Source: Candidatus Cloacimonadota bacterium (GTDB lineage: Bacteria > Muiribacteriota > UBA6191). Taken from it: 64,000 nucleotides of DNA. The stretch spans positions 492,468-556,467 of the forward strand of contig JAGSHD010000001.1 of the NCBI GenBank assembly GCA_023954715.1, written 5' to 3'. The position numbers and the translations under genes were made by a program. The notes under the pieces were generated by a model. The model was given only the letters and a program-made list of their open reading frames with translations. It searched no databases and was not told the DNA's origin. Below are positions 45,158 through 64,000 of this stretch, one piece after another (positions within the stretch are counted from its first letter, which is position 1; every line of letters starts with the position of its first letter).

Positions 45158-45159
<2 letters not shown>
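44683..45159 (+). CDS. Hypothetical protein, possibly DsrE/YchN-fold
   Basis: The YFIFMDSAIYLA…KILLNHSSV pattern resembles the DsrE/TusD family; this is tentative. Its stop codon overlaps the first bases of the tRNA. Confidence 0.45.
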
Positions 45160-45231
<72 letters not shown>

Positions 45232-45367
45232 CTATATGGCTTCTCTTGATTGTGCTATTATTTCAATATTACAATCAAGCGAAGCCTTTTTTACGTACCA
45301 ATAAAGTTTAACTAGCTAGATACCTTATCATATAAACCACTTCAAAAATATTTATGGACTTATAGCA

Positions 45368-56773: not shown

Positions 56774-57379
56774 TTAGAGGCCTCTAGGCTCTAAACCCTT
56801 TGCGATCCGCTCTTTGTCGCCATCTCGACTACCCCGTAATGAGTTAATTAGTTTGGTATCAACCAAATGTCCTCTTTGACGATATAATTCATACATAATC
56901 ATTGATGCTGAAACGGAAATATTATAACTCTGAACCATACCAACCATAGGAATATACATTAATTCATCACAAAGTTCTTTTAGCTCTTTACTCAAACCTA
57001 ACTTTTCAGAACCCATCATTACGATCGTCTTTTTCGAAAAGTCATAATCCATAACTGTACCCGCAGTAGAATCCATGTAAGTACCTACTAAAGTATAGCC
57101 CTCCGCTTTTTTTTTCTTTGCAAACTCTACTGGATCTTCTACCTTACAAAAGTCCATCCATCGAGTAGCACTCGCACTAGATTTATGCCCATGATAATCA
57201 AACTCAGGAAACTCATTATAAGTATAATACAAATGAATTTTTGAAATACCTAAACCATCTGCAGTACGAGAAACGGCTGCAACATTATGTGCATCACATA
57301 CATTGTCTAAAAGTATTTCAAAGTCAGGTATCTTATTACTATGATATGCTTCGATCATCTTTTTTCGACGCTCGTTCAC
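56774..57379 (-). CDS. SpoU/TrmH-family RNA 2'-O-methyltransferase
   Basis: NVAAVSRTADGLG (motif 1) and a C-terminal SpoU knot region (LVGTYMD…IVMMGSEKLGLS…YIPMVG…SYNISVSAS). Confidence 0.8.
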   Translation of the reverse strand: MNERRKKMIEAYHSNKIPDFEILLDNVCDAHNVAAVSRTADGLGISKIHLYYTYNEFPEFDYHGHKSSASATRWMDFCKVEDPVEFAKKKKAEGYTLVGTYMDSTAGTVMDYDFSKKTIVMMGSEKLGLSKELKELCDELMYIPMVGMVQSYNISVSASMIMYELYRQRGHLVDTKLINSLRGSRDGDKERIAKGLEPRGL

Positions 57380-58374
57380 TGCATAATCCTTTGAGATTGA
57401 AAATACACACCTTTTAATGCACCACTAAAACCATCCACAACACCTGATTTGCCAATAGCTAGTTCATCACCTAAAGCATCGTCTTCATATTCACAGATGA
57501 ACTCCATGCATTCGTCAATAGAATCTGCATAAACTTCATACTCTCTATAATATTCACATCTTTTTGAATGTGTATGAGAAACCTGCATTGGAGCACAAGA
57601 CTTAACAGATAAATGAAATAGTTTTGTTTCTTCGCCTTTAGGTGTGTTTTTTAACTCTCTCATTAATTGTAAAGCTTGATTTGGAGTCGGGTCTAAGATT
57701 TTTAGACATGGATAGAGATACTTACTAACCAAAGCTTCATCTTCTTTTAAACTTTGTAAAGCCCTAGCTAACTCATAATGCAATTTAAAAGCTAGCAATC
57801 TCAACTCATTGGCTTCCATTTCGTGAGCTACTTCTTGAATTCTTTCAATCTCAGGAGTTAGATCTTCTTTAACCAATTCATGTTTTGACATGGCATTTTG
57901 ACATCCTGCCCACATTGCTTTTACCAACAAGTTAGTTTTTGTATCCGAAGTATCAATAGCATCTAATTCTTTTAAAGCCTCTTCGAACCTAGCAGACTGA
58001 TACAAGATAGTTGCTTTAGCAATCTGAATCGGATTAGTAGGAACTTCGTCAAATGTCTCTAACTTTTTATAAGCAATTAAAGCTTCATCTATATTGCCCA
58101 TATCTCTATGGGTATCTGCTAAGATTCGATAAGTAAAAAAATCGGGCTCACCATTTTCGATCAAGTCTTCTAGGGTTTCAATGGTTAAATCCATTCGTCC
58201 TTGGCCTTTATAAGCCATTGCCAGTAGAAAGTAAGACTCCTTTAAATTAACATCCTTTATCTTACTTGCTAACTTAATTGCTTTACCAAACTCTTTGTCA
58301 TTTAATAGATCTTGAATCTTTAATAAAGACTTTTTTTGAGCTGGATTTAATTTACTTTCTGTGGATGAAGACAT
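57376..58374 (-). CDS. TPR-repeat protein
   Basis: Multiple TPR-like units (YFLLAMAYKGQGRMDLTIETLEDL, ILADTHRDMGNIDEALIAYKKL). The stop overlaps the TrmH start (ATGA). Confidence 0.65.
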   Translation of the reverse strand: MSSSTESKLNPAQKKSLLKIQDLLNDKEFGKAIKLASKIKDVNLKESYFLLAMAYKGQGRMDLTIETLEDLIENGEPDFFTYRILADTHRDMGNIDEALIAYKKLETFDEVPTNPIQIAKATILYQSARFEEALKELDAIDTSDTKTNLLVKAMWAGCQNAMSKHELVKEDLTPEIERIQEVAHEMEANELRLLAFKLHYELARALQSLKEDEALVSKYLYPCLKILDPTPNQALQLMRELKNTPKGEETKLFHLSVKSCAPMQVSHTHSKRCEYYREYEVYADSIDECMEFICEYEDDALGDELAIGKSGVVDGFSGALKGVYFQSQRIMQ

Positions 58375-58571
58375 TGGTTCTCCTGATAAATGTATTTTTA
58401 AACTATCTTAAATATTAACAAATAAATAAGAGAGTTATAATTTTTGAAATTTTTAAAAATATAGGCTAAATTACTTTAAGAGTTATACTCTAAAACAAGT
58501 AGAATTTCCATAAAAGCTCTATTCGAGGATACATATTAGTTCAAGTATCTAAAGTCTGGATAATATTAATC

Positions 58572-58973
58572 TCAACTTGCTGTGACTAGTTTCAATCTCA
58601 CTAATTCTTCTAAAATCTTTGTTTTTGATAGTGGTTTTGTAATATAGGATTCACAGCCTGCTCTAAAGGCAGCCATCAAGTTACTTGAGTCCTTTAAAGA
58701 TGTAGTGATAATGACTTTCGCACCGGTTCCTAGTTTTATTCCGGCAGAGTGTTCAATGGATCTTATTTCTTTCAAGGCATCTAAGCCAGGAAGTTTTGGC
58801 ATACATAAATCTAAACAAATTAGATCATAAGGATCTTCTTCTGAAATTGCCATTTCTACGGCACAAATTGCCTCATCGCCATCAGATGCAATGTCAAGAT
58901 CACCATATCCGTCTAATATTCTAGATAATACTTTACGACATATAAAATCATCATCAACCACCAAAATTTTCAC
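58572..58973 (-). CDS. Single-domain response regulator (CheY-like receiver)
   Basis: MKILVVDDDFICR…LICLDLCMPKLPGLD…. Confidence 0.85.
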   Translation of the reverse strand: MKILVVDDDFICRKVLSRILDGYGDLDIASDGDEAICAVEMAISEEDPYDLICLDLCMPKLPGLDALKEIRSIEHSAGIKLGTGAKVIITTSLKDSSNLMAAFRAGCESYITKPLSKTKILEELVRLKLVTAS

Positions 58974-59218
58974 GACACTACTCCATTTGAAAGTCTGTTA
59001 CAAATATTAATCTTAAGCTCTACCACAAATCAAATGCATTTACTGCTTTAAACCAAACAAAGACACTACAATGTGTACAAATCATAGCTTTTAATGCTTC
59101 TCCAAGTATGCTGATTTTACTTGTGAAGCAATAAAACAAACGATAGACTGGTATATAGCAGGATTTTTACCCCTAGATTAAAAGTATTTTTACATACTTT
59201 AAAACTATACTCAAGAGA

Positions 59219-60565
59219 TTATGTAAATAAAATCTTAAACTTCCACATCAAAAAGTCAATAAACCCCTCTTCACTTAAATGAAACTTTTCTTCACGATTT
59301 GAATTGGAAGCCCAAGACCACATTTTATCATGTTTCCATTCGCAGGATGGTCTGTAAATAACTTTTTTACCTAGATGTATCTCTTTAAATTCAGAGTTTC
59401 TTTTTATAACTTCTTCATGCTGATCTACAAATGTAATTTCTATCTTACCTAAATCTTGATAAACCCCCAAAAAAGCTTCGAGGATCTTATAAAATTCTTG
59501 ATCTCTTTCTGAGCTTTTTTCAAAGATCACCTTGAATTTGAACTTATATCGATCATGAACTTTATCAGAAAACTCTATCAAAAAGGATAAAATTGCAAAA
59601 AAGAAAAATGGATAGATGCTGCACTCATTTTGATTAGGCCATACGGATTGGGAGTAAACAAACAAATGAACCTCTTGCCAGCACTCCTCTAATTGATTGG
59701 TATCTCTCTCATAGTATAGCAGTTCATTTTCAATGTATTTTACATCGAACAAATTCACTTCAGATTCTACTTCTGCGTAAACTAACTCCGAGGATAATAA
59801 ACTTTCAAAGCTACCTTTATTTGTGATTCCTGTGATTCCACCTAAAGGATACTCTCCGATATTTTTCTTTTGCTCTGTATAAGTTGGCTCTATCTCCATT
59901 CTAATTTTTTTTAAAATGGAAACACAACGTTCATAAAAATATCGTTTGGACTCATGACATTTTTTGATACCAAAACGATCAGAATCATTAGCTATATCAA
60001 TAACATGTCTTAGTTCCCATAAATCTTCTCCATTAAAATCTACACAAGCCTCTTCGTAGGCTTGTATCCAAGAGTTTGGATCAAAATAAGGGTGCCACTC
60101 TTGAGTTTCATTCAATTGAGTAAAAATGTCGTCATCTTCTAGCTTATTAATCAGATCTTTTATATACGACGGTTTGACTTCTATATAATTTTCTGGGGTT
60201 TTTAATCTAGAATAAAAAACCTCAATAAATAATTCATAGAACAAAAAGAAGTCATCGCCTTTAAAAAATAAAGAGATTTCTCTACTATCTTTCATAGCTT
60301 GACTAAATTTTACCTTATCCAACCATTGGTTGCGATATTGATCATCCCAATCAAACAAAACTCTCTCAAAGTTGTGAGACTTCGAATCTCTTAGTATTGC
60401 ATATAAATCAAACAAAATACCAGGTAACGGGAGCTGTAGTCCTTTATATAGCATTTTCAAATAGGAATCTAAAAATTGCTTTGTATACTGATCTAGCGCA
60501 AAAAAGCTGTTTCTTAAACTAGATAATACTAAAAACTCTGTTTGAACTTTATTTAACATTGACAT
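59219..60565 (-). CDS. Hypothetical protein (448 aa), downstream partner of AAA_5 ATPase
   Basis: No recognisable domain. Weak candidate D…E-x-K-like residues near the C-terminus (FVDQHEEV…EFKEI). Lies 45 nt after the ATPase gene. Confidence 0.55.
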   Translation of the reverse strand: MSMLNKVQTEFLVLSSLRNSFFALDQYTKQFLDSYLKMLYKGLQLPLPGILFDLYAILRDSKSHNFERVLFDWDDQYRNQWLDKVKFSQAMKDSREISLFFKGDDFFLFYELFIEVFYSRLKTPENYIEVKPSYIKDLINKLEDDDIFTQLNETQEWHPYFDPNSWIQAYEEACVDFNGEDLWELRHVIDIANDSDRFGIKKCHESKRYFYERCVSILKKIRMEIEPTYTEQKKNIGEYPLGGITGITNKGSFESLLSSELVYAEVESEVNLFDVKYIENELLYYERDTNQLEECWQEVHLFVYSQSVWPNQNECSIYPFFFFAILSFLIEFSDKVHDRYKFKFKVIFEKSSERDQEFYKILEAFLGVYQDLGKIEITFVDQHEEVIKRNSEFKEIHLGKKVIYRPSCEWKHDKMWSWASNSNREEKFHLSEEGFIDFLMWKFKILFT

Positions 60566-60610
60566 AATTTTATGGTTCTATTTTAGATTTATGATCTAAG
60601 GTATGTAGCA

Positions 60611-61582
60611 TTATAAGATATTTTGGATCTTTTCTTTTAAAAACTCGATTTCATCTAATTGATTACCTAAATGCTTGAGTAAAATAAAATCTTCTTTTTC
60701 TACTCCACCACCACGCTTAAACAAAGCATGACATCGAATCAAACGATATAGCTTAATGATTTTTCTATCTGAAATCTCTATTTCAAAGTCATGAATTATA
60801 GTTTTTAAGATTCGCTTAAACTCCATATATAGGTTTTTTCCAAAATACAAATCTTCACCAGTTTCTCCTACTGTCATAAGAGATTTTTGAATATGCTGAT
60901 GTAAAAACTCGAAATCATCTAAAGAAAAAACTGTATCAGAAAACTGCTGTTGATTAAAATACTTTCTAGTATCGTTTTCTAAACCTTTGAAAAGTAAATC
61001 ATCCCACTTATCTTCAGTAACTTTTGAAACCTTTAACTTCAATGTGAAACGATCTTTTAAGGCATCTAACTCTGTATGAGTGGGAATCTCATTGGTTGCT
61101 CCAAATAAAACCTTTAGTGGGACAGGATGTGGTTTTCCATCTTGATAAAACTTTCTTTCATTTATGATGGTCAGTAAGGTATTTAAAATAGCTGAATTCG
61201 ATTTGAAAACCTCATCTAAAAATACCAATTTGGCGGTGGGTAGCTTACCCTCTACACGACGATGAAACTCTCCTACCTTTAATCTTTTTAAATCTAAAGG
61301 CCCAATGATCTCTGAGGGTTCAGTAAATTTTGTAAGCATGTATTCAAAATAGTCTTCTTCACTGATGTCTAACAACTTTTTAAACTGACCAATCAATGCA
61401 GACTTACCTGTACCTGGGGTTCCGATAAACAAAATTGGCTCTTGTGCAATTGCTGCTACAATCATCATATCAATCTCTTGTTCTCTTGCAACAAAAGAAG
61501 AGTTTAATCTTGTTTTAAACTCTTGTAATCGCTTTAACACTTCTTCTAAATCCGGCGCCTGATGCTCTTGAAATATATTCAT
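60611..61582 (-). CDS. AAA_5-family ATPase (MoxR/McrB-like)
   Basis: Walker A is ILFIGTPGTGKS. Walker B/sensor is LVFLDEVFKSNSAILNTLLTIINER. GATNEIP…LDALKDRF parallels the MoxR (ATQNP…LDRF) and McrB (GTMNTAD…RRRF) C-terminal motifs. Confidence 0.8.
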   Translation of the reverse strand: MNIFQEHQAPDLEEVLKRLQEFKTRLNSSFVAREQEIDMMIVAAIAQEPILFIGTPGTGKSALIGQFKKLLDISEEDYFEYMLTKFTEPSEIIGPLDLKRLKVGEFHRRVEGKLPTAKLVFLDEVFKSNSAILNTLLTIINERKFYQDGKPHPVPLKVLFGATNEIPTHTELDALKDRFTLKLKVSKVTEDKWDDLLFKGLENDTRKYFNQQQFSDTVFSLDDFEFLHQHIQKSLMTVGETGEDLYFGKNLYMEFKRILKTIIHDFEIEISDRKIIKLYRLIRCHALFKRGGGVEKEDFILLKHLGNQLDEIEFLKEKIQNIL

Positions 61583-64000
61583 TCAGACAACCTCCCATTT
61601 TCTTAGTATTTTAAATAAGTTATTTTTAATTGTATGCTCAAACTCTATAAAATAGTTTTTAAGCGGAATAGACATATCTTCATCTTGTTCAAACATGTGT
61701 ATGAGAAACTCTAAGGTAGCTATCTTAGACAGTGAAAAATGTGTATTTGTTGAATAGTGATCTTTCACTTTAGAAAACTTTCTTACAAATGCATTACCAA
61801 CCCATTTTTTTAATCCTAAACTACAGCTAAAAACTTTATCCATAATTAAACAAAATAGTTCGTAAGACTCTATTTTTTCTAACTTTTGTGAGAAATACAA
61901 TTTTAGCACTGGTTTTAAGTTATCTTTTGATTTAGAAGGCATTAACAAATCATCGTAAATTACAGCAAGCAAAACCCTTACTTTAGCTGAATGAGCATCA
62001 TCACTTAGCTGTTTTTCAAATTTCTCTAATAAGTTTAACAGTTGAGCTGTTTCAAGTCTTTTGGATAATTGATCAAAAATCGGGAGCAATAAGGTATATA
62101 TAATCTTTGATTTATTAGAATCAATAGATACGAGTAAAGCTTCAAAGTCTTCAAATAAACTTTGTAACATTTCATCATTTTCATAAAAACAAGCGATGGA
62201 CAAAAGTCGAGCCAATACACTGCCCTTATGATCATTAGCCACAAGAGTAGGATAGGCCGAGTAAATATCATCAAACACCTTTAAACAAAAGTCTTGGCCT
62301 AATTTAGGTAAAAGATCTAATATGGTTACATAGGCTAGTTTTTTCTTGTAAGATAATCGATCTACTGGAGTTTTTTTATCTACTTCTAATTGTGATAAAA
62401 CAGTAGGTATAGCCTGCAATAGATCTTCTGGAGACCTTTGCGATAAACCAATATATTCATGATACATTTCATTGGTAGCGATGGAAACATCTGGTTCAAC
62501 AATCCTAGATAACTCTATTAATCTTTGAGCTTTATATTTTTCAGTCGAACTTAACTGATCTCTAATTTCGTTGATCTTTTCATCTATTTTCTGATTATCA
62601 ACAGAGTAGAGCTCTTTATCTATTTCTTTTTTATAATATAAATAAAACAGTGCATGTATAGAGTCATTTGTGTAGGCCACCAAATTTTTACTTTGACTTA
62701 AGTTTTTTGAGGCTCCATCTGTATTTTTACTTTTTGCAAAGCCCATGGAGAAAATTAGATGATAAAAAATCTTGTTTTGTACTACATCCATTGTTTCATC
62801 TGAAAAATATCCCACCAAGCTATCAAAAAAGTCGTTGACAGTCTCCTCGCTAGTACCCTGCTCCGTATCGAATTTATATTCTTCTATAAATTTTGGTAAG
62901 CTAGCTAACTCATGTATATTAGCGTCAAATAGCTTCGCTAAAAACTCATCCTTTACTTTTAGCATTAAATAAGAGTCCAAGCCAAAGGACTTATGAAACA
63001 AGCTTCCTAAATTAATTAAACGAATCAATCCCATGGAAGAAATACGAGATTCAAACTCCAATAAAAACTCCGTTTGAACAAAACGGGCTGTATCACTAGA
63101 TAAGTTGGCAAAGTCATTTGTTAACAAGTATCCATAATATTCAAAATTTTCATTAGACATAGCTTCTAAATTTATATTTACCAAATCATCCACTTTAAGA
63201 TTATGGTCCATATCTTTTAAAATTAAGCTAGCAATACTTCCTAGACATAGTTTGTAGTTTTCACTACTCAATGAGTAATATAAAACAATTTCATACAATT
63301 TATAACTTTCATTAAAGTTAGATAGTTTTGCTTCTAATCCCGCTAACTCAAACCAGTTTTTTAACTGTATCTCTTTTGGAGAATTCATTAATTGTTCACG
63401 AATCTCTAAAATACGTTTTTCAATGGCATCTCGTTCAAGGTCCTTTTCTGAGTCATCCATAGACTCCATAATATTTTCTAGATCAATCTCTTGATCATCT
63501 TCTGCATCAACAGTATCAAATTGAATCAAGTTTTCTTCTTGGAAAAATTGTCCTGGATCATCGGGATTAAAATCATATACTCCGATCCGATAGTCATCCA
63601 ATCGAATATTGGACATAAACCGCTCGATGACAGTAGAGTTTTCAGCGAGAACATAATGAACAATCGAATCCAACTCCTTAAAGTCCTGTTCTGACAAAAA
63701 GACTTTTGTACAACTGTCTTCTTTATTCCATAAAATTATGGTTTCTCCATACGTAATTGGAAAAAGACGATCAAATTCACTCCTAGGAAGACTAGGGAAT
63801 AACTTATCATCTATGGGACAATACATAGAGTAATCTTCATACGGCAAGTAATATGCAAAGTCACTAGCTAAAAAACTCGAGCTCTTGTTAGACTCCCAAT
63901 GTTTCAATTTTACAAAAAATCCTTCTATAGGAGTCTGGGCTGCTAGAATTGTAAAGCTTCTACGCTCTTCTGGAGACATCTCAGTAATCCATTTTTCTAA
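61583..64000 (-). CDS. Large hypothetical protein (≥798 aa), 5' partial at window edge
   Basis: The ORF is open to the window end; the upstream in-frame sequence LEKWITE- contains no stop. It is directly abutted by the AAA_5 ATPase gene (1 nt gap). Acidic region near residues 140-180. No recognised domain. Confidence 0.55.
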   Translation of the reverse strand, partial: LEKWITEMSPEERRSFTILAAQTPIEGFFVKLKHWESNKSSSFLASDFAYYLPYEDYSMYCPIDDKLFPSLPRSEFDRLFPITYGETIILWNKEDSCTKVFLSEQDFKELDSIVHYVLAENSTVIERFMSNIRLDDYRIGVYDFNPDDPGQFFQEENLIQFDTVDAEDDQEIDLENIMESMDDSEKDLERDAIEKRILEIREQLMNSPKEIQLKNWFELAGLEAKLSNFNESYKLYEIVLYYSLSSENYKLCLGSIASLILKDMDHNLKVDDLVNINLEAMSNENFEYYGYLLTNDFANLSSDTARFVQTEFLLEFESRISSMGLIRLINLGSLFHKSFGLDSYLMLKVKDEFLAKLFDANIHELASLPKFIEEYKFDTEQGTSEETVNDFFDSLVGYFSDETMDVVQNKIFYHLIFSMGFAKSKNTDGASKNLSQSKNLVAYTNDSIHALFYLYYKKEIDKELYSVDNQKIDEKINEIRDQLSSTEKYKAQRLIELSRIVEPDVSIATNEMYHEYIGLSQRSPEDLLQAIPTVLSQLEVDKKTPVDRLSYKKKLAYVTILDLLPKLGQDFCLKVFDDIYSAYPTLVANDHKGSVLARLLSIACFYENDEMLQSLFEDFEALLVSIDSNKSKIIYTLLLPIFDQLSKRLETAQLLNLLEKFEKQLSDDAHSAKVRVLLAVIYDDLLMPSKSKDNLKPVLKLYFSQKLEKIESYELFCLIMDKVFSCSLGLKKWVGNAFVRKFSKVKDHYSTNTHFSLSKIATLEFLIHMFEQDEDMSIPLKNYFIEFEHTIKNNLFKILRKWEVV

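Follow-up and report, generated by a model that had tools for sequence, protein, structure and literature searches.

Gene layout at the edge of the window

We analysed a stretch of 64,000 nt of a genome labelled Candidatus Cloacimonadota (assembly GCA_023954715.1, contig JAGSHD010000001.1, positions 492,468 to 556,467), hereafter called the window, and focused on three minus-strand genes at its end (59219-64000), which encode a 448 aa protein, a 323 aa ATPase and a large protein that continues past the window edge. An earlier note, written from the sequence alone, had described these genes as a three-gene operon in which a MoxR/McrB-like AAA_5 ATPase is accompanied by two large partners without domains, and had suggested either a divergent McrBC-like restriction module or a new chaperone-like system. 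That interpretation is partly supported by the data presented here. We are confident that the three genes are the 3'-terminal part of a simple-type (radical SAM/peptide) FtsH ternary system from a divergent subfamily. The simple type was defined computationally as vWA-MoxR subsystem 3 by Kaur, Burroughs, Iyer and Aravind (eLife 2020; PMC7159879, sections 21, 22 and 24).

The three open reading frames (ORFs) are closely packed and the large one is open at the window edge, as described before. The spacing of 45 nt between the ATPase gene and the 448 aa gene is also as described, but the 1 nt gap reported on the other side of the ATPase gene is 0 nt, the stop codon of the large ORF abutting the ATG of the ATPase gene (GTC TGA ATG). 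The 448 aa gene is followed after 245 nt by a response-regulator gene. A scan of 58300-60700 for promoters and terminators found no more sites than in shuffled sequence.

From the ATG at 63979 up to base 64000 the large ORF is free of in-frame stops. A Logan contig that equals the window over 7686 nt with 0 mismatches prolongs this ORF by 262 nt, to 892 codons, and leaves it still open. An NCBI protein that is 100% identical to the large protein (P0001), listed under a MAG labelled 'Candidatus Cloacimonetes bacterium', has 1055 aa. The window therefore carries residues 251-1055, and the ATG that would give a protein of 798 aa is internal. Coordinates of the genes and of the features within them are given in Table 1.

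Table 1. Genes, domains and motifs at 59219-64000 of the window
Feature	Position	Strand	Basis or remark
Gene for the degenerate vWA-family partner (448 aa)	59219..60565	-	N-terminal helical region and ivWA domain, assigned by sequence
C-terminal predicted alpha/beta region of the 448 aa protein, residues 289-448	59222..59701	-	Presumed vWA core without MIDAS
Most conserved segment of the 448 aa protein, residues 237-288: G-YPLGGITG...SEL...LFDVKYIENELLYYERD	59702..59857	-	Invariant columns in alignments of 5 and 6 sequences
Gene for the MoxR-clade AAA+ ATPase (323 aa)	60611..61582	-	Type known from FtsH and beta-propeller ternary systems, assigned by sequence
LKDRF, ATPase residues 175-179	61046..61060	-	Candidate arginine-finger region, by position only
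Walker B, LVFLDE, ATPase residues 119-124	61211..61228	-	Motif scan; FLDE core (121-124) invariant in 7 sequences
Walker A (P-loop), GTPGTGKS, ATPase residues 54-61	61400..61423	-	Motif scan and alignment
Gene for the large fvmX7-family protein, 3' 2.4 kb (residues 251-1055 of 1055 and stop codon)	61583..64000	-	ORF open to base 64000; family assigned by profile alignment
C-terminal all-alpha solenoid of the large protein, TPR/HEAT-like, residues 424-1055 (about 630 aa)	61586..63481	-	AlphaFold2 prediction
Conserved motif DHYSTNTHFSLSK (D-H-Y-S-T-N-T-H-F-S-L-S-K), residues 997-1009 of the large protein	61724-61762	-	Kept across the close subfamily
Acidic linker of the large protein, predicted disordered, residues 381-423	63482..63610	-	pLDDT (predicted local distance difference test) <50 for 381-420; D/E-rich
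N-terminal alpha/beta domain of the large protein, residues 1-380, a divergent fvmX7 domain by prediction; residues 251-380 in the window	63611..64000	-	AlphaFold2 prediction

The central ATPase

The 323 aa protein matches the Pfam family bpMoxR (PF20030) with 202 bits (E 7e-60; cutoff 27) and AAA_5 (PF07728) with 82 bits. The AAA_5 call of the earlier note is correct, but bpMoxR is a far better and more specific fit. In a sequence search of solved structures the closest relative is RavA (E 1.2e-34), and the RavA equivalog NF010054 is the top NCBIfam match. The ATPase is not a RavA equivalog, however, because its score of 146 bits is far below the cutoff of 681, with positions 8-301 of 498 matched, and because with 323 as against 498 aa it lacks the C-terminal part of RavA. 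There is no McrB-type match in Pfam, NCBIfam, PADLOC or the solved-structure sequence search. Judged by its sequence, the ATPase at the centre of the module is a member of the MoxR clade, as the earlier note had proposed, and not of McrB.

The cores of the ATPase motifs are invariant in seven relatives, while the flanking positions differ. GATN at residues 161-164 is, by position, a candidate sensor-1. LKDRF is a candidate arginine finger because it lies at the same position as the arginine finger of MoxR proteins, which is N-terminal to strand 5 (PMC7159879, section 8). The P-loop has the standard form GxxGxGKS in the window copy and in relatives other than L012 (3214-4230) and L013 (9027-9998), where it reads GPPGTAKS. 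This is the GXXXTAKS variant that Kaur et al. highlight in MoxR proteins from FtsH and beta-propeller systems (PMC7159879).

The 448 aa partner

The 448 aa protein matches the Pfam family ivWA (PF19997), which is described there as 'vWA domain found in the FtsH ternary systems', with 43.3 bits (cutoff 35). The match is confined to residues 240-292, that is, to profile positions 1-57 of 253. For comparison we used 16 canonical proteins from metagenomic loci in which Pfam recognizes both ivWA-helical_N and ivWA. In an hhalign comparison with this set the window subfamily aligned over query residues 4-405 with a probability of 99.9% (E 2e-31). This suggests that the protein consists of an N-terminal helical region and an ivWA domain, which is how the vWA component is built in FtsH ternary systems of the simple type. 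Its most conserved segment, residues 237-288, follows the pattern G-YPxGGI ... SEL ... LFD-KY-E-ELLYYERD and is kept in the 16 canonical proteins as well. After this motif the predicted secondary structure is beta-alpha-beta.

No metal-ion-dependent adhesion site (MIDAS; DxSxS ... T ... D) was found, in agreement with the earlier note. At the beta-1 position five subfamily members have YSQS, YSQN, HTMS, ASTT and RGRQ, with no conserved Asp/Ser pattern, and the pattern is likewise absent from the consensus of the 16 canonical ivWA proteins. This agrees with the observation that vWA domains of FtsH ternary systems can lose the metal-chelating aspartates (PMC7159879). Profiles made from the ivWA alignments had no match among PDB sequences at E up to 10. 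Pfam gave no match to a propeller or WD40-type domain, and the chain ends about 160 residues past the ivWA motif. Neither the 448 aa protein nor the large protein gave a nuclease or McrC signal in Pfam, NCBIfam or PADLOC, and Pfam and fold searches found no PD-(D/E)xK, SRA, YTH or other DNA-reader domain in either. We assign the 448 aa protein, from these alignments, as a degenerate vWA-family partner. The earlier note had set a canonical VWA partner against its own proposals; the partner is of the vWA family, but it is not canonical, its metal-binding residues being lost.

In one of the canonical ivWA proteins (758 aa; L042:10979-13252) the C-terminus is formed by an FGE-sulfatase (formylglycine-generating-enzyme-like) domain (136 bits). 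Such domains are hypervariable effectors in other MoxR-vWA systems; the effectors listed for the simple FtsH type in the sections of Kaur et al. cited here are NEFF1 and radical SAM only (PMC7159879).

The large protein

The large protein alone has no match in Pfam, NCBIfam, PADLOC or PDB sequences. When 1.84 billion cluster representatives (50% identity) were searched exhaustively with HMMER, 35 relatives were found, mostly of 1050-1190 aa. The Pfam family fvmX7 (PF20005, 'FtsH ternary system domain X7') is matched by 17 of the 24 relatives that were aligned, with a best E of 4e-91, and weakly by the closest relatives. When the close subfamily of the large protein was compared with the fvmX7-positive group by hhalign, the two aligned over 961 columns with a probability of 100% (E 3.3e-59). 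On this alignment the large protein is a divergent fvmX7-family member. With this assignment and the ivWA match (43.3 against 35 bits), the description of both partners as domain-less no longer holds.

An AlphaFold2 model built on the 24-sequence alignment (mean pLDDT 78.8) divides the protein into a predicted alpha/beta domain, an acidic linker and a long, all-helical solenoid, modelled over residues 424-1051 (Table 1). The linker is the least conserved stretch, with 8-19% identity to distant relatives. The family profile matches consensus TPR proteins (E 7e-7) and the fold matches are to solenoids only. No enzymatic domain was detected in the large protein, and the model supports the view that it is a scaffold in nature. 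H166 and E1038 do not vary among the 24 family members aligned, and D997 is nearly invariant. The motif at residues 997-1009 is conspicuous amid the otherwise fast-evolving solenoid.

In two loci (L027:1054-7823 and L019:1368-8523) two tandem fvmX7-family paralogues of about 1130 aa each are found upstream of a single MoxR gene. In L027 a gene for a 675 aa protein with DUF4394 and FG-GAP lies between the paralogues and the MoxR gene.

The gene cluster in relatives

Three lineages show the region upstream of the trio: the NORP72 metagenome-assembled genome (MAG; L002/L003), the BROCD023 MAG (L005) and GCA_964503595 (L013). In each of them the trio closes, at the 3' end, a co-oriented cluster of some ten genes, and the gene order is shared. 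This order is GDPD (on the opposite strand), Ddl, an ORF of 50-58 aa, radical SAM, a protein of 357-376 aa without a family match, fvmX5, FtsH-like, fvmX3-analog, the large protein, MoxR, ivWA and a SpoU methylase. The three-gene operon of the earlier note thus has about seven more co-oriented genes upstream in the relatives. L010, L011 and L012 have fvmX3-analog, large protein, MoxR and ivWA as far as their contigs extend. Conservation of synteny, which the earlier note had proposed to check, is therefore observed for the three genes in L002/L003, L005 and L010-L013. The large gene abuts or overlaps the MoxR gene and is co-conserved with it in seven of eight related loci. In the NCBI assembly of NORP72 no MoxR gene is called, owing to a run of N inside it (L002:13300-13400); the gene is intact in the Logan assembly (L003), and its absence is an artefact and not gene loss.

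The FtsH-like gene is located two genes upstream of the large gene and is also present, in part, in L011. Its product scores 145 bits with AAA and 143 bits with Peptidase_M41. About 280 N-terminal residues without Walker motifs (a degenerate AAA-like region) are followed by an active AAA+ module, and the motifs GPPGTGKT, IIVFDE and an intact HEAGH are present. There is no transmembrane segment, suggesting that the protein is soluble. HE[AS]GH is kept in 13 of 15 canonical FtsH-like ORFs. The other assignments in the relatives rest on scores of 80 bits (fvmX5), 79.5 bits (fvmX3-analog) and 114 bits (radical SAM, Fer4_12). The radical SAM enzyme carries a CxxxCxxC motif in L003, L005 and L013, and in the same three loci the 50-58 aa ORF upstream of it encodes a single transmembrane helix with a conserved Cys and Pro-Leu.

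The fvmX5 protein of L003 (7048-7629) also scores 25.2 bits with the Pfam family PglZ (cutoff 25; E 1.8e-5), the alkaline-phosphatase-like domain of BREX and DISARM, which may hint at the fold of fvmX5. The protein of about 360 aa lies in the slot that fvmX6 has in the one canonical locus compared (L015); hhalign gave 23%, and an identification as fvmX6 is unsupported.

A metagenome scan with the MoxR alignment gave at least 550 relatives. We kept 80 loci and analysed them with hidden Markov models made from our own alignments. The order rSAM (radical SAM), fvmX5, FtsH, X3-analog, fvmX7, MoxR, ivWA is found in many of the 80. Counting only MoxR relatives at 42-51% identity, and only loci with enough flanking sequence, there is an upstream fvmX7-family gene in 22 of 32, an FtsH-like gene in 17 of 27 and a radical SAM gene in 6 of 18. 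A scan of a genome collection with the ivWA alignment returned two MAGs only, both already among the relatives.

Rates of evolution

Between distant lineages the FtsH-like proteins are 56-60% identical and the MoxR proteins 53-59%, as against 21-24% for the large protein, 24-31% for ivWA and 24-32% for fvmX5. The flanking proteins are 49-63% (SpoU) and 38-44% (Ddl) identical. On these sequences, the rates fit a system of constant engines and variable partners. The ATPases are conserved like housekeeping genes, in what looks like vertical inheritance at one position, and the scaffold and the adaptor evolve two to three times faster. Such a pattern of rates helps to tell engine parts from sensor parts.

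Comparison with known systems

Pfam holds the families ivWA, ivWA-helical_N, fvmX1-7 and fvmX3-analog for FtsH ternary systems. The locus resembles the simple type in its MoxR protein, in a divergent vWA protein that has a helical N-terminal domain and has lost its metal-binding residues, and in fvmX7. In the relatives the likeness extends to an FtsH-type protein with no Walker A/B match in its N-terminal region and an active second AAA+, to fvmX5, fvmX3-analog and radical SAM with a small peptide, and to a gene order shared with many metagenomic loci. There are also differences. The large protein is below every Pfam threshold, ivWA is recognized over its first 57 profile positions only, and the protein of about 360 aa stands in the slot that fvmX6 occupies in L015. 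In its P-loop the window copy has the standard GTPGTGKS in place of GXXXTAKS (which L012 and L013 have), and the cluster keeps one chromosomal position. The hosts are uncultured MAGs that bear the label Ca. Cloacimonadota, which does not appear in the sections of Kaur et al. cited here; these stress multicellular deltaproteobacteria, actinobacteria and planctomycetes (PMC7159879). We conclude that the locus is a divergent new member of a computationally defined family and is not new as a kind. The 'new chaperone-like system' of the earlier note is accordingly replaced, as all three proteins fall into families defined for FtsH ternary systems (PMC7159879).

The closest MoxR family, PF20030, takes the name bpMoxR from the MoxR-vWA-beta-propeller systems (subsystem 4), and the MoxRs and degenerate vWAs of the FtsH and beta-propeller subsystems are closely related (Kaur et al., PMC7159879). 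In contrast with subsystem 4, there is no propeller of about four blades after the vWA domain, the protein ending at residue 448, and the relatives have an FtsH-like protein, which subsystem 4 does not. With RavA-ViaA, NorQ-NorD and CbbQ-CbbO the locus shares a MoxR AAA+ engine and a vWA-family adaptor gene immediately downstream of it. By analogy, ATP-driven remodelling of an adaptor-held client is likely to be their common logic. The locus differs from these pairs in lacking the C-terminal region that RavA has after its AAA+ module, in having no MIDAS in the adaptor and no client enzyme gene nearby, and in having the fvmX7 scaffold and, going by the relatives, the FtsH-like protease as extra obligatory partners. 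The Esr pathways of Actinomycetales (MoxR, vWA, beta-propeller sensor and kinase/FHA), which have experimental support as a threat sensor (preprint 10.64898/2026.09.08.750141), also couple a MoxR-vWA pair to a variable non-enzymatic sensor protein. Of the papers retrieved, this preprint alone offers experimental evidence that modules of this sort take part in conflict sensing. The Esr pathways are a different subsystem, however: they signal through kinase/FHA proteins with Esx secretion as output, and they lack the FtsH-like protease, the fvmX proteins and the radical SAM peptide.

FtsH ternary systems are known from comparative genomics only, and to this body of data the locus adds a compact, low-GC, divergent subfamily. 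Pfam models miss the large component entirely and cover a quarter of the vWA domain, which is why automatic annotation leaves two of the three proteins as 'hypothetical'. With only some ten genes, the cluster could be cloned whole, which makes it a candidate for the first functional test of this class of system.

Proposed mechanism and alternative explanations

Alongside the established family memberships, the motifs of the ATPase and (in relatives) of the protease, the scaffold-like large protein and the co-conservation and order of the genes, we put forward a mechanism modelled on Kaur et al. and on the characterised MoxR-vWA pairs. The MoxR protein, with intact Walker A and B motifs and sensor-1 and arginine-finger candidates, probably forms a hexameric ring that would act with the ivWA adaptor. 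Because this adaptor lacks metal-binding MIDAS residues it would need another way of holding a client, probably the invariant YPxGGI...ELLYYERD segment. MoxR and ivWA would use ATP to remodel a large complex on the fast-evolving fvmX7 protein, in which the N-domain and acidic linker would sit on a TPR-like platform of 630 residues. Remodelling would gate the soluble FtsH-like AAA+ protease, either turning it on or giving it substrate, and the output would be proteolysis, deployment of a radical-SAM-modified membrane peptide, or both. The system would most likely be a switch held tightly 'off' until a trigger such as an invader or a stress signal. The mechanism is tentative and has somewhat less than an even chance of being right. 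Taken as a whole, this explanation, an FtsH ternary system of the simple type with the mechanism as its more tentative part, is the one we consider best, and likely.

A number of observations weigh against this explanation. We infer the cluster make-up of the window genome from relatives whose three proteins are 65-90% identical (L002/L003) or more distant. A 10 kb contig (L008) has fvmX3-analog, the large protein and fvmX5 but no MoxR, ivWA or FtsH, so these three genes may form a sub-module that is separable from the ATPases. Two canonical loci (L050 and L027) stop at MoxR, with no adjoining ivWA and unrelated genes next. Kaur et al. argue for a role in conflict and for enrichment in bacteria of multicellular habit (PMC7159879), but in all lineages with visible flanks the cluster is in one chromosomal slot between ddl and spoU, which looks like long vertical inheritance rather than a mobile island. 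Its neighbours (LeuRS, the leucyl-tRNA synthetase; methyltransferases; SpoU) are housekeeping genes. PADLOC gives no meaningful match for the large protein, ivWA, fvmX5, fvmX3-analog or the protein of about 360 aa; all that the six cluster proteins searched gave were generic AAA matches (IetA, TRIP13), in the case of the FtsH-like protein, and a weak match of radical SAM to pVip. The defence-island context that the earlier note had suggested looking for was not found. Searches by tblastn found no fvmX7-family match in plasmids (with P0001 and P0024) and no match in phages to P0001, the sole member searched. The earlier note was right to call the module uncharacterised, as we found no literature report of an experiment on any FtsH ternary system.

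The fixed position could mean that in this clade the genes are an anciently fixed ddl-spoU chromosomal pathway and not a mobile anti-phage system. A single-pass membrane peptide modified by radical SAM would then be the trigger or the product of the FtsH-like protease, gated by the MoxR and MIDAS-less vWA pair on the 1055 aa scaffold. We think this unlikely. If true, it would be an ATP-gated switch for proteolytic signalling or envelope stress that is new in kind, and YPxGGI...ELLYYERD would be a new, metal-independent mode of client binding by vWA domains.

The fixed slot, the housekeeping neighbours and the want of a specific PADLOC, plasmid (fvmX7-family) or phage (P0001) match also lead us to keep two other explanations live. 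In a housekeeping chaperone-protease pathway, MoxR/ivWA and the TPR-like scaffold would serve the assembly or quality control of a cellular complex, possibly one linked to the envelope (given the membrane peptide and the ddl neighbour), and the FtsH-like protease would clear failed or surplus subunits. Every experimentally studied MoxR-vWA pair (RavA-ViaA, NorQ-NorD, CbbQ-CbbO) is an assembly or maturation chaperone according to section 8 of PMC7159879, and the slot (GDPD / ddl ... spoU) is the same in lineages whose SpoU and Ddl proteins have diverged as described above. Such a pathway is nonetheless decidedly unlikely, as the components other than the ATPases diverge two to three times faster than the housekeeping proteins beside them, the family is patchy (the 35 relatives being clusters at 50% identity among 1.84 billion representatives), the MIDAS site of the housekeeping pairs is lost and no gene for a candidate client enzyme is nearby. 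The cluster could instead mature a peptide in the manner of ribosomally synthesized and post-translationally modified peptides, with radical SAM modifying the 50-58 aa peptide, the M41 protease processing it and MoxR/ivWA/fvmX7 as accessories for folding, insertion or self-immunity. The genes in the window would in that case be the supporting half of a pathway for a natural product or a signal. The conserved ORF with one transmembrane helix directly upstream of the small radical SAM gene in L003, L005 and L013 and the intact active-site motif of the protease are in keeping with this, and Kaur et al. proposed a radical-SAM-modified peptide effector for the simple subtype (PMC7159879). We find it improbable, however: radical SAM was detected in only 6 of the 18 related metagenomic loci that reach far enough upstream, where FtsH and fvmX7 are much more constant, the cluster has no transporter, and more than 2500 codons of ATPase and scaffold would be a very large cost for an accessory role.

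Two further explanations are hard to reconcile with the data. RavA is the nearest solved structure and top NCBIfam match of the ATPase, as would be expected of an ordinary two-component MoxR-VWA chaperone pair beside a large unrelated gene. We give this very little credence, because of the shortfall from the RavA equivalog in score and length, the missing C-terminal part, the lack of MIDAS in the partner and the adjacency and co-conservation of the large gene, and because the pair comes with fvmX and FtsH-like genes wherever upstream sequence exists. The other, put forward in the earlier note, is a type IV restriction module of a divergent, McrBC-like kind whose reader protein has split off; all that it has in common with the locus is the generic AAA_5 fold of McrB. 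MoxR is the best family of the ATPase, no McrB or McrC match was obtained in Pfam, NCBIfam, PADLOC or the solved-structure search (the best PADLOC E is no better than 2e-4, to unrelated AAA proteins), no nuclease or reader domain was found in either partner, and the 448 aa partner is homologous to ivWA proteins along its whole length. We therefore reject the McrBC explanation, to which we attach practically no probability, on the MoxR/RavA matches and the ivWA and fvmX7 profile alignments.

Neighbouring genes and other observations

Between the ivWA and SpoU methylase genes the window has, on the minus strand (57376-58973), genes for a response regulator that consists of a receiver only (133 aa; 68 bits with Response_reg) and for a 332 aa TPR protein, the latter gene overlapping the SpoU start by 4 nt. 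The response regulator is found in the window and the NORP72 lineage only, and the TPR protein in these and L010; in L005, L012 and L013 SpoU directly follows ivWA. The two genes lie outside the system and look like a lineage-specific insertion next to it.

The closest relative of the large protein outside its own lineage, P0007 (28% identity), is encoded in L008 (1883-6041), where it is flanked by fvmX3-analog and fvmX5. In L027 the MoxR gene is followed by a gene for an unrelated AMP-binding enzyme. Finally, the sole tRNA gene of the window, tRNA-Val (GAC), is located at 45158-45232 on the plus strand and is unrelated to the system described here.

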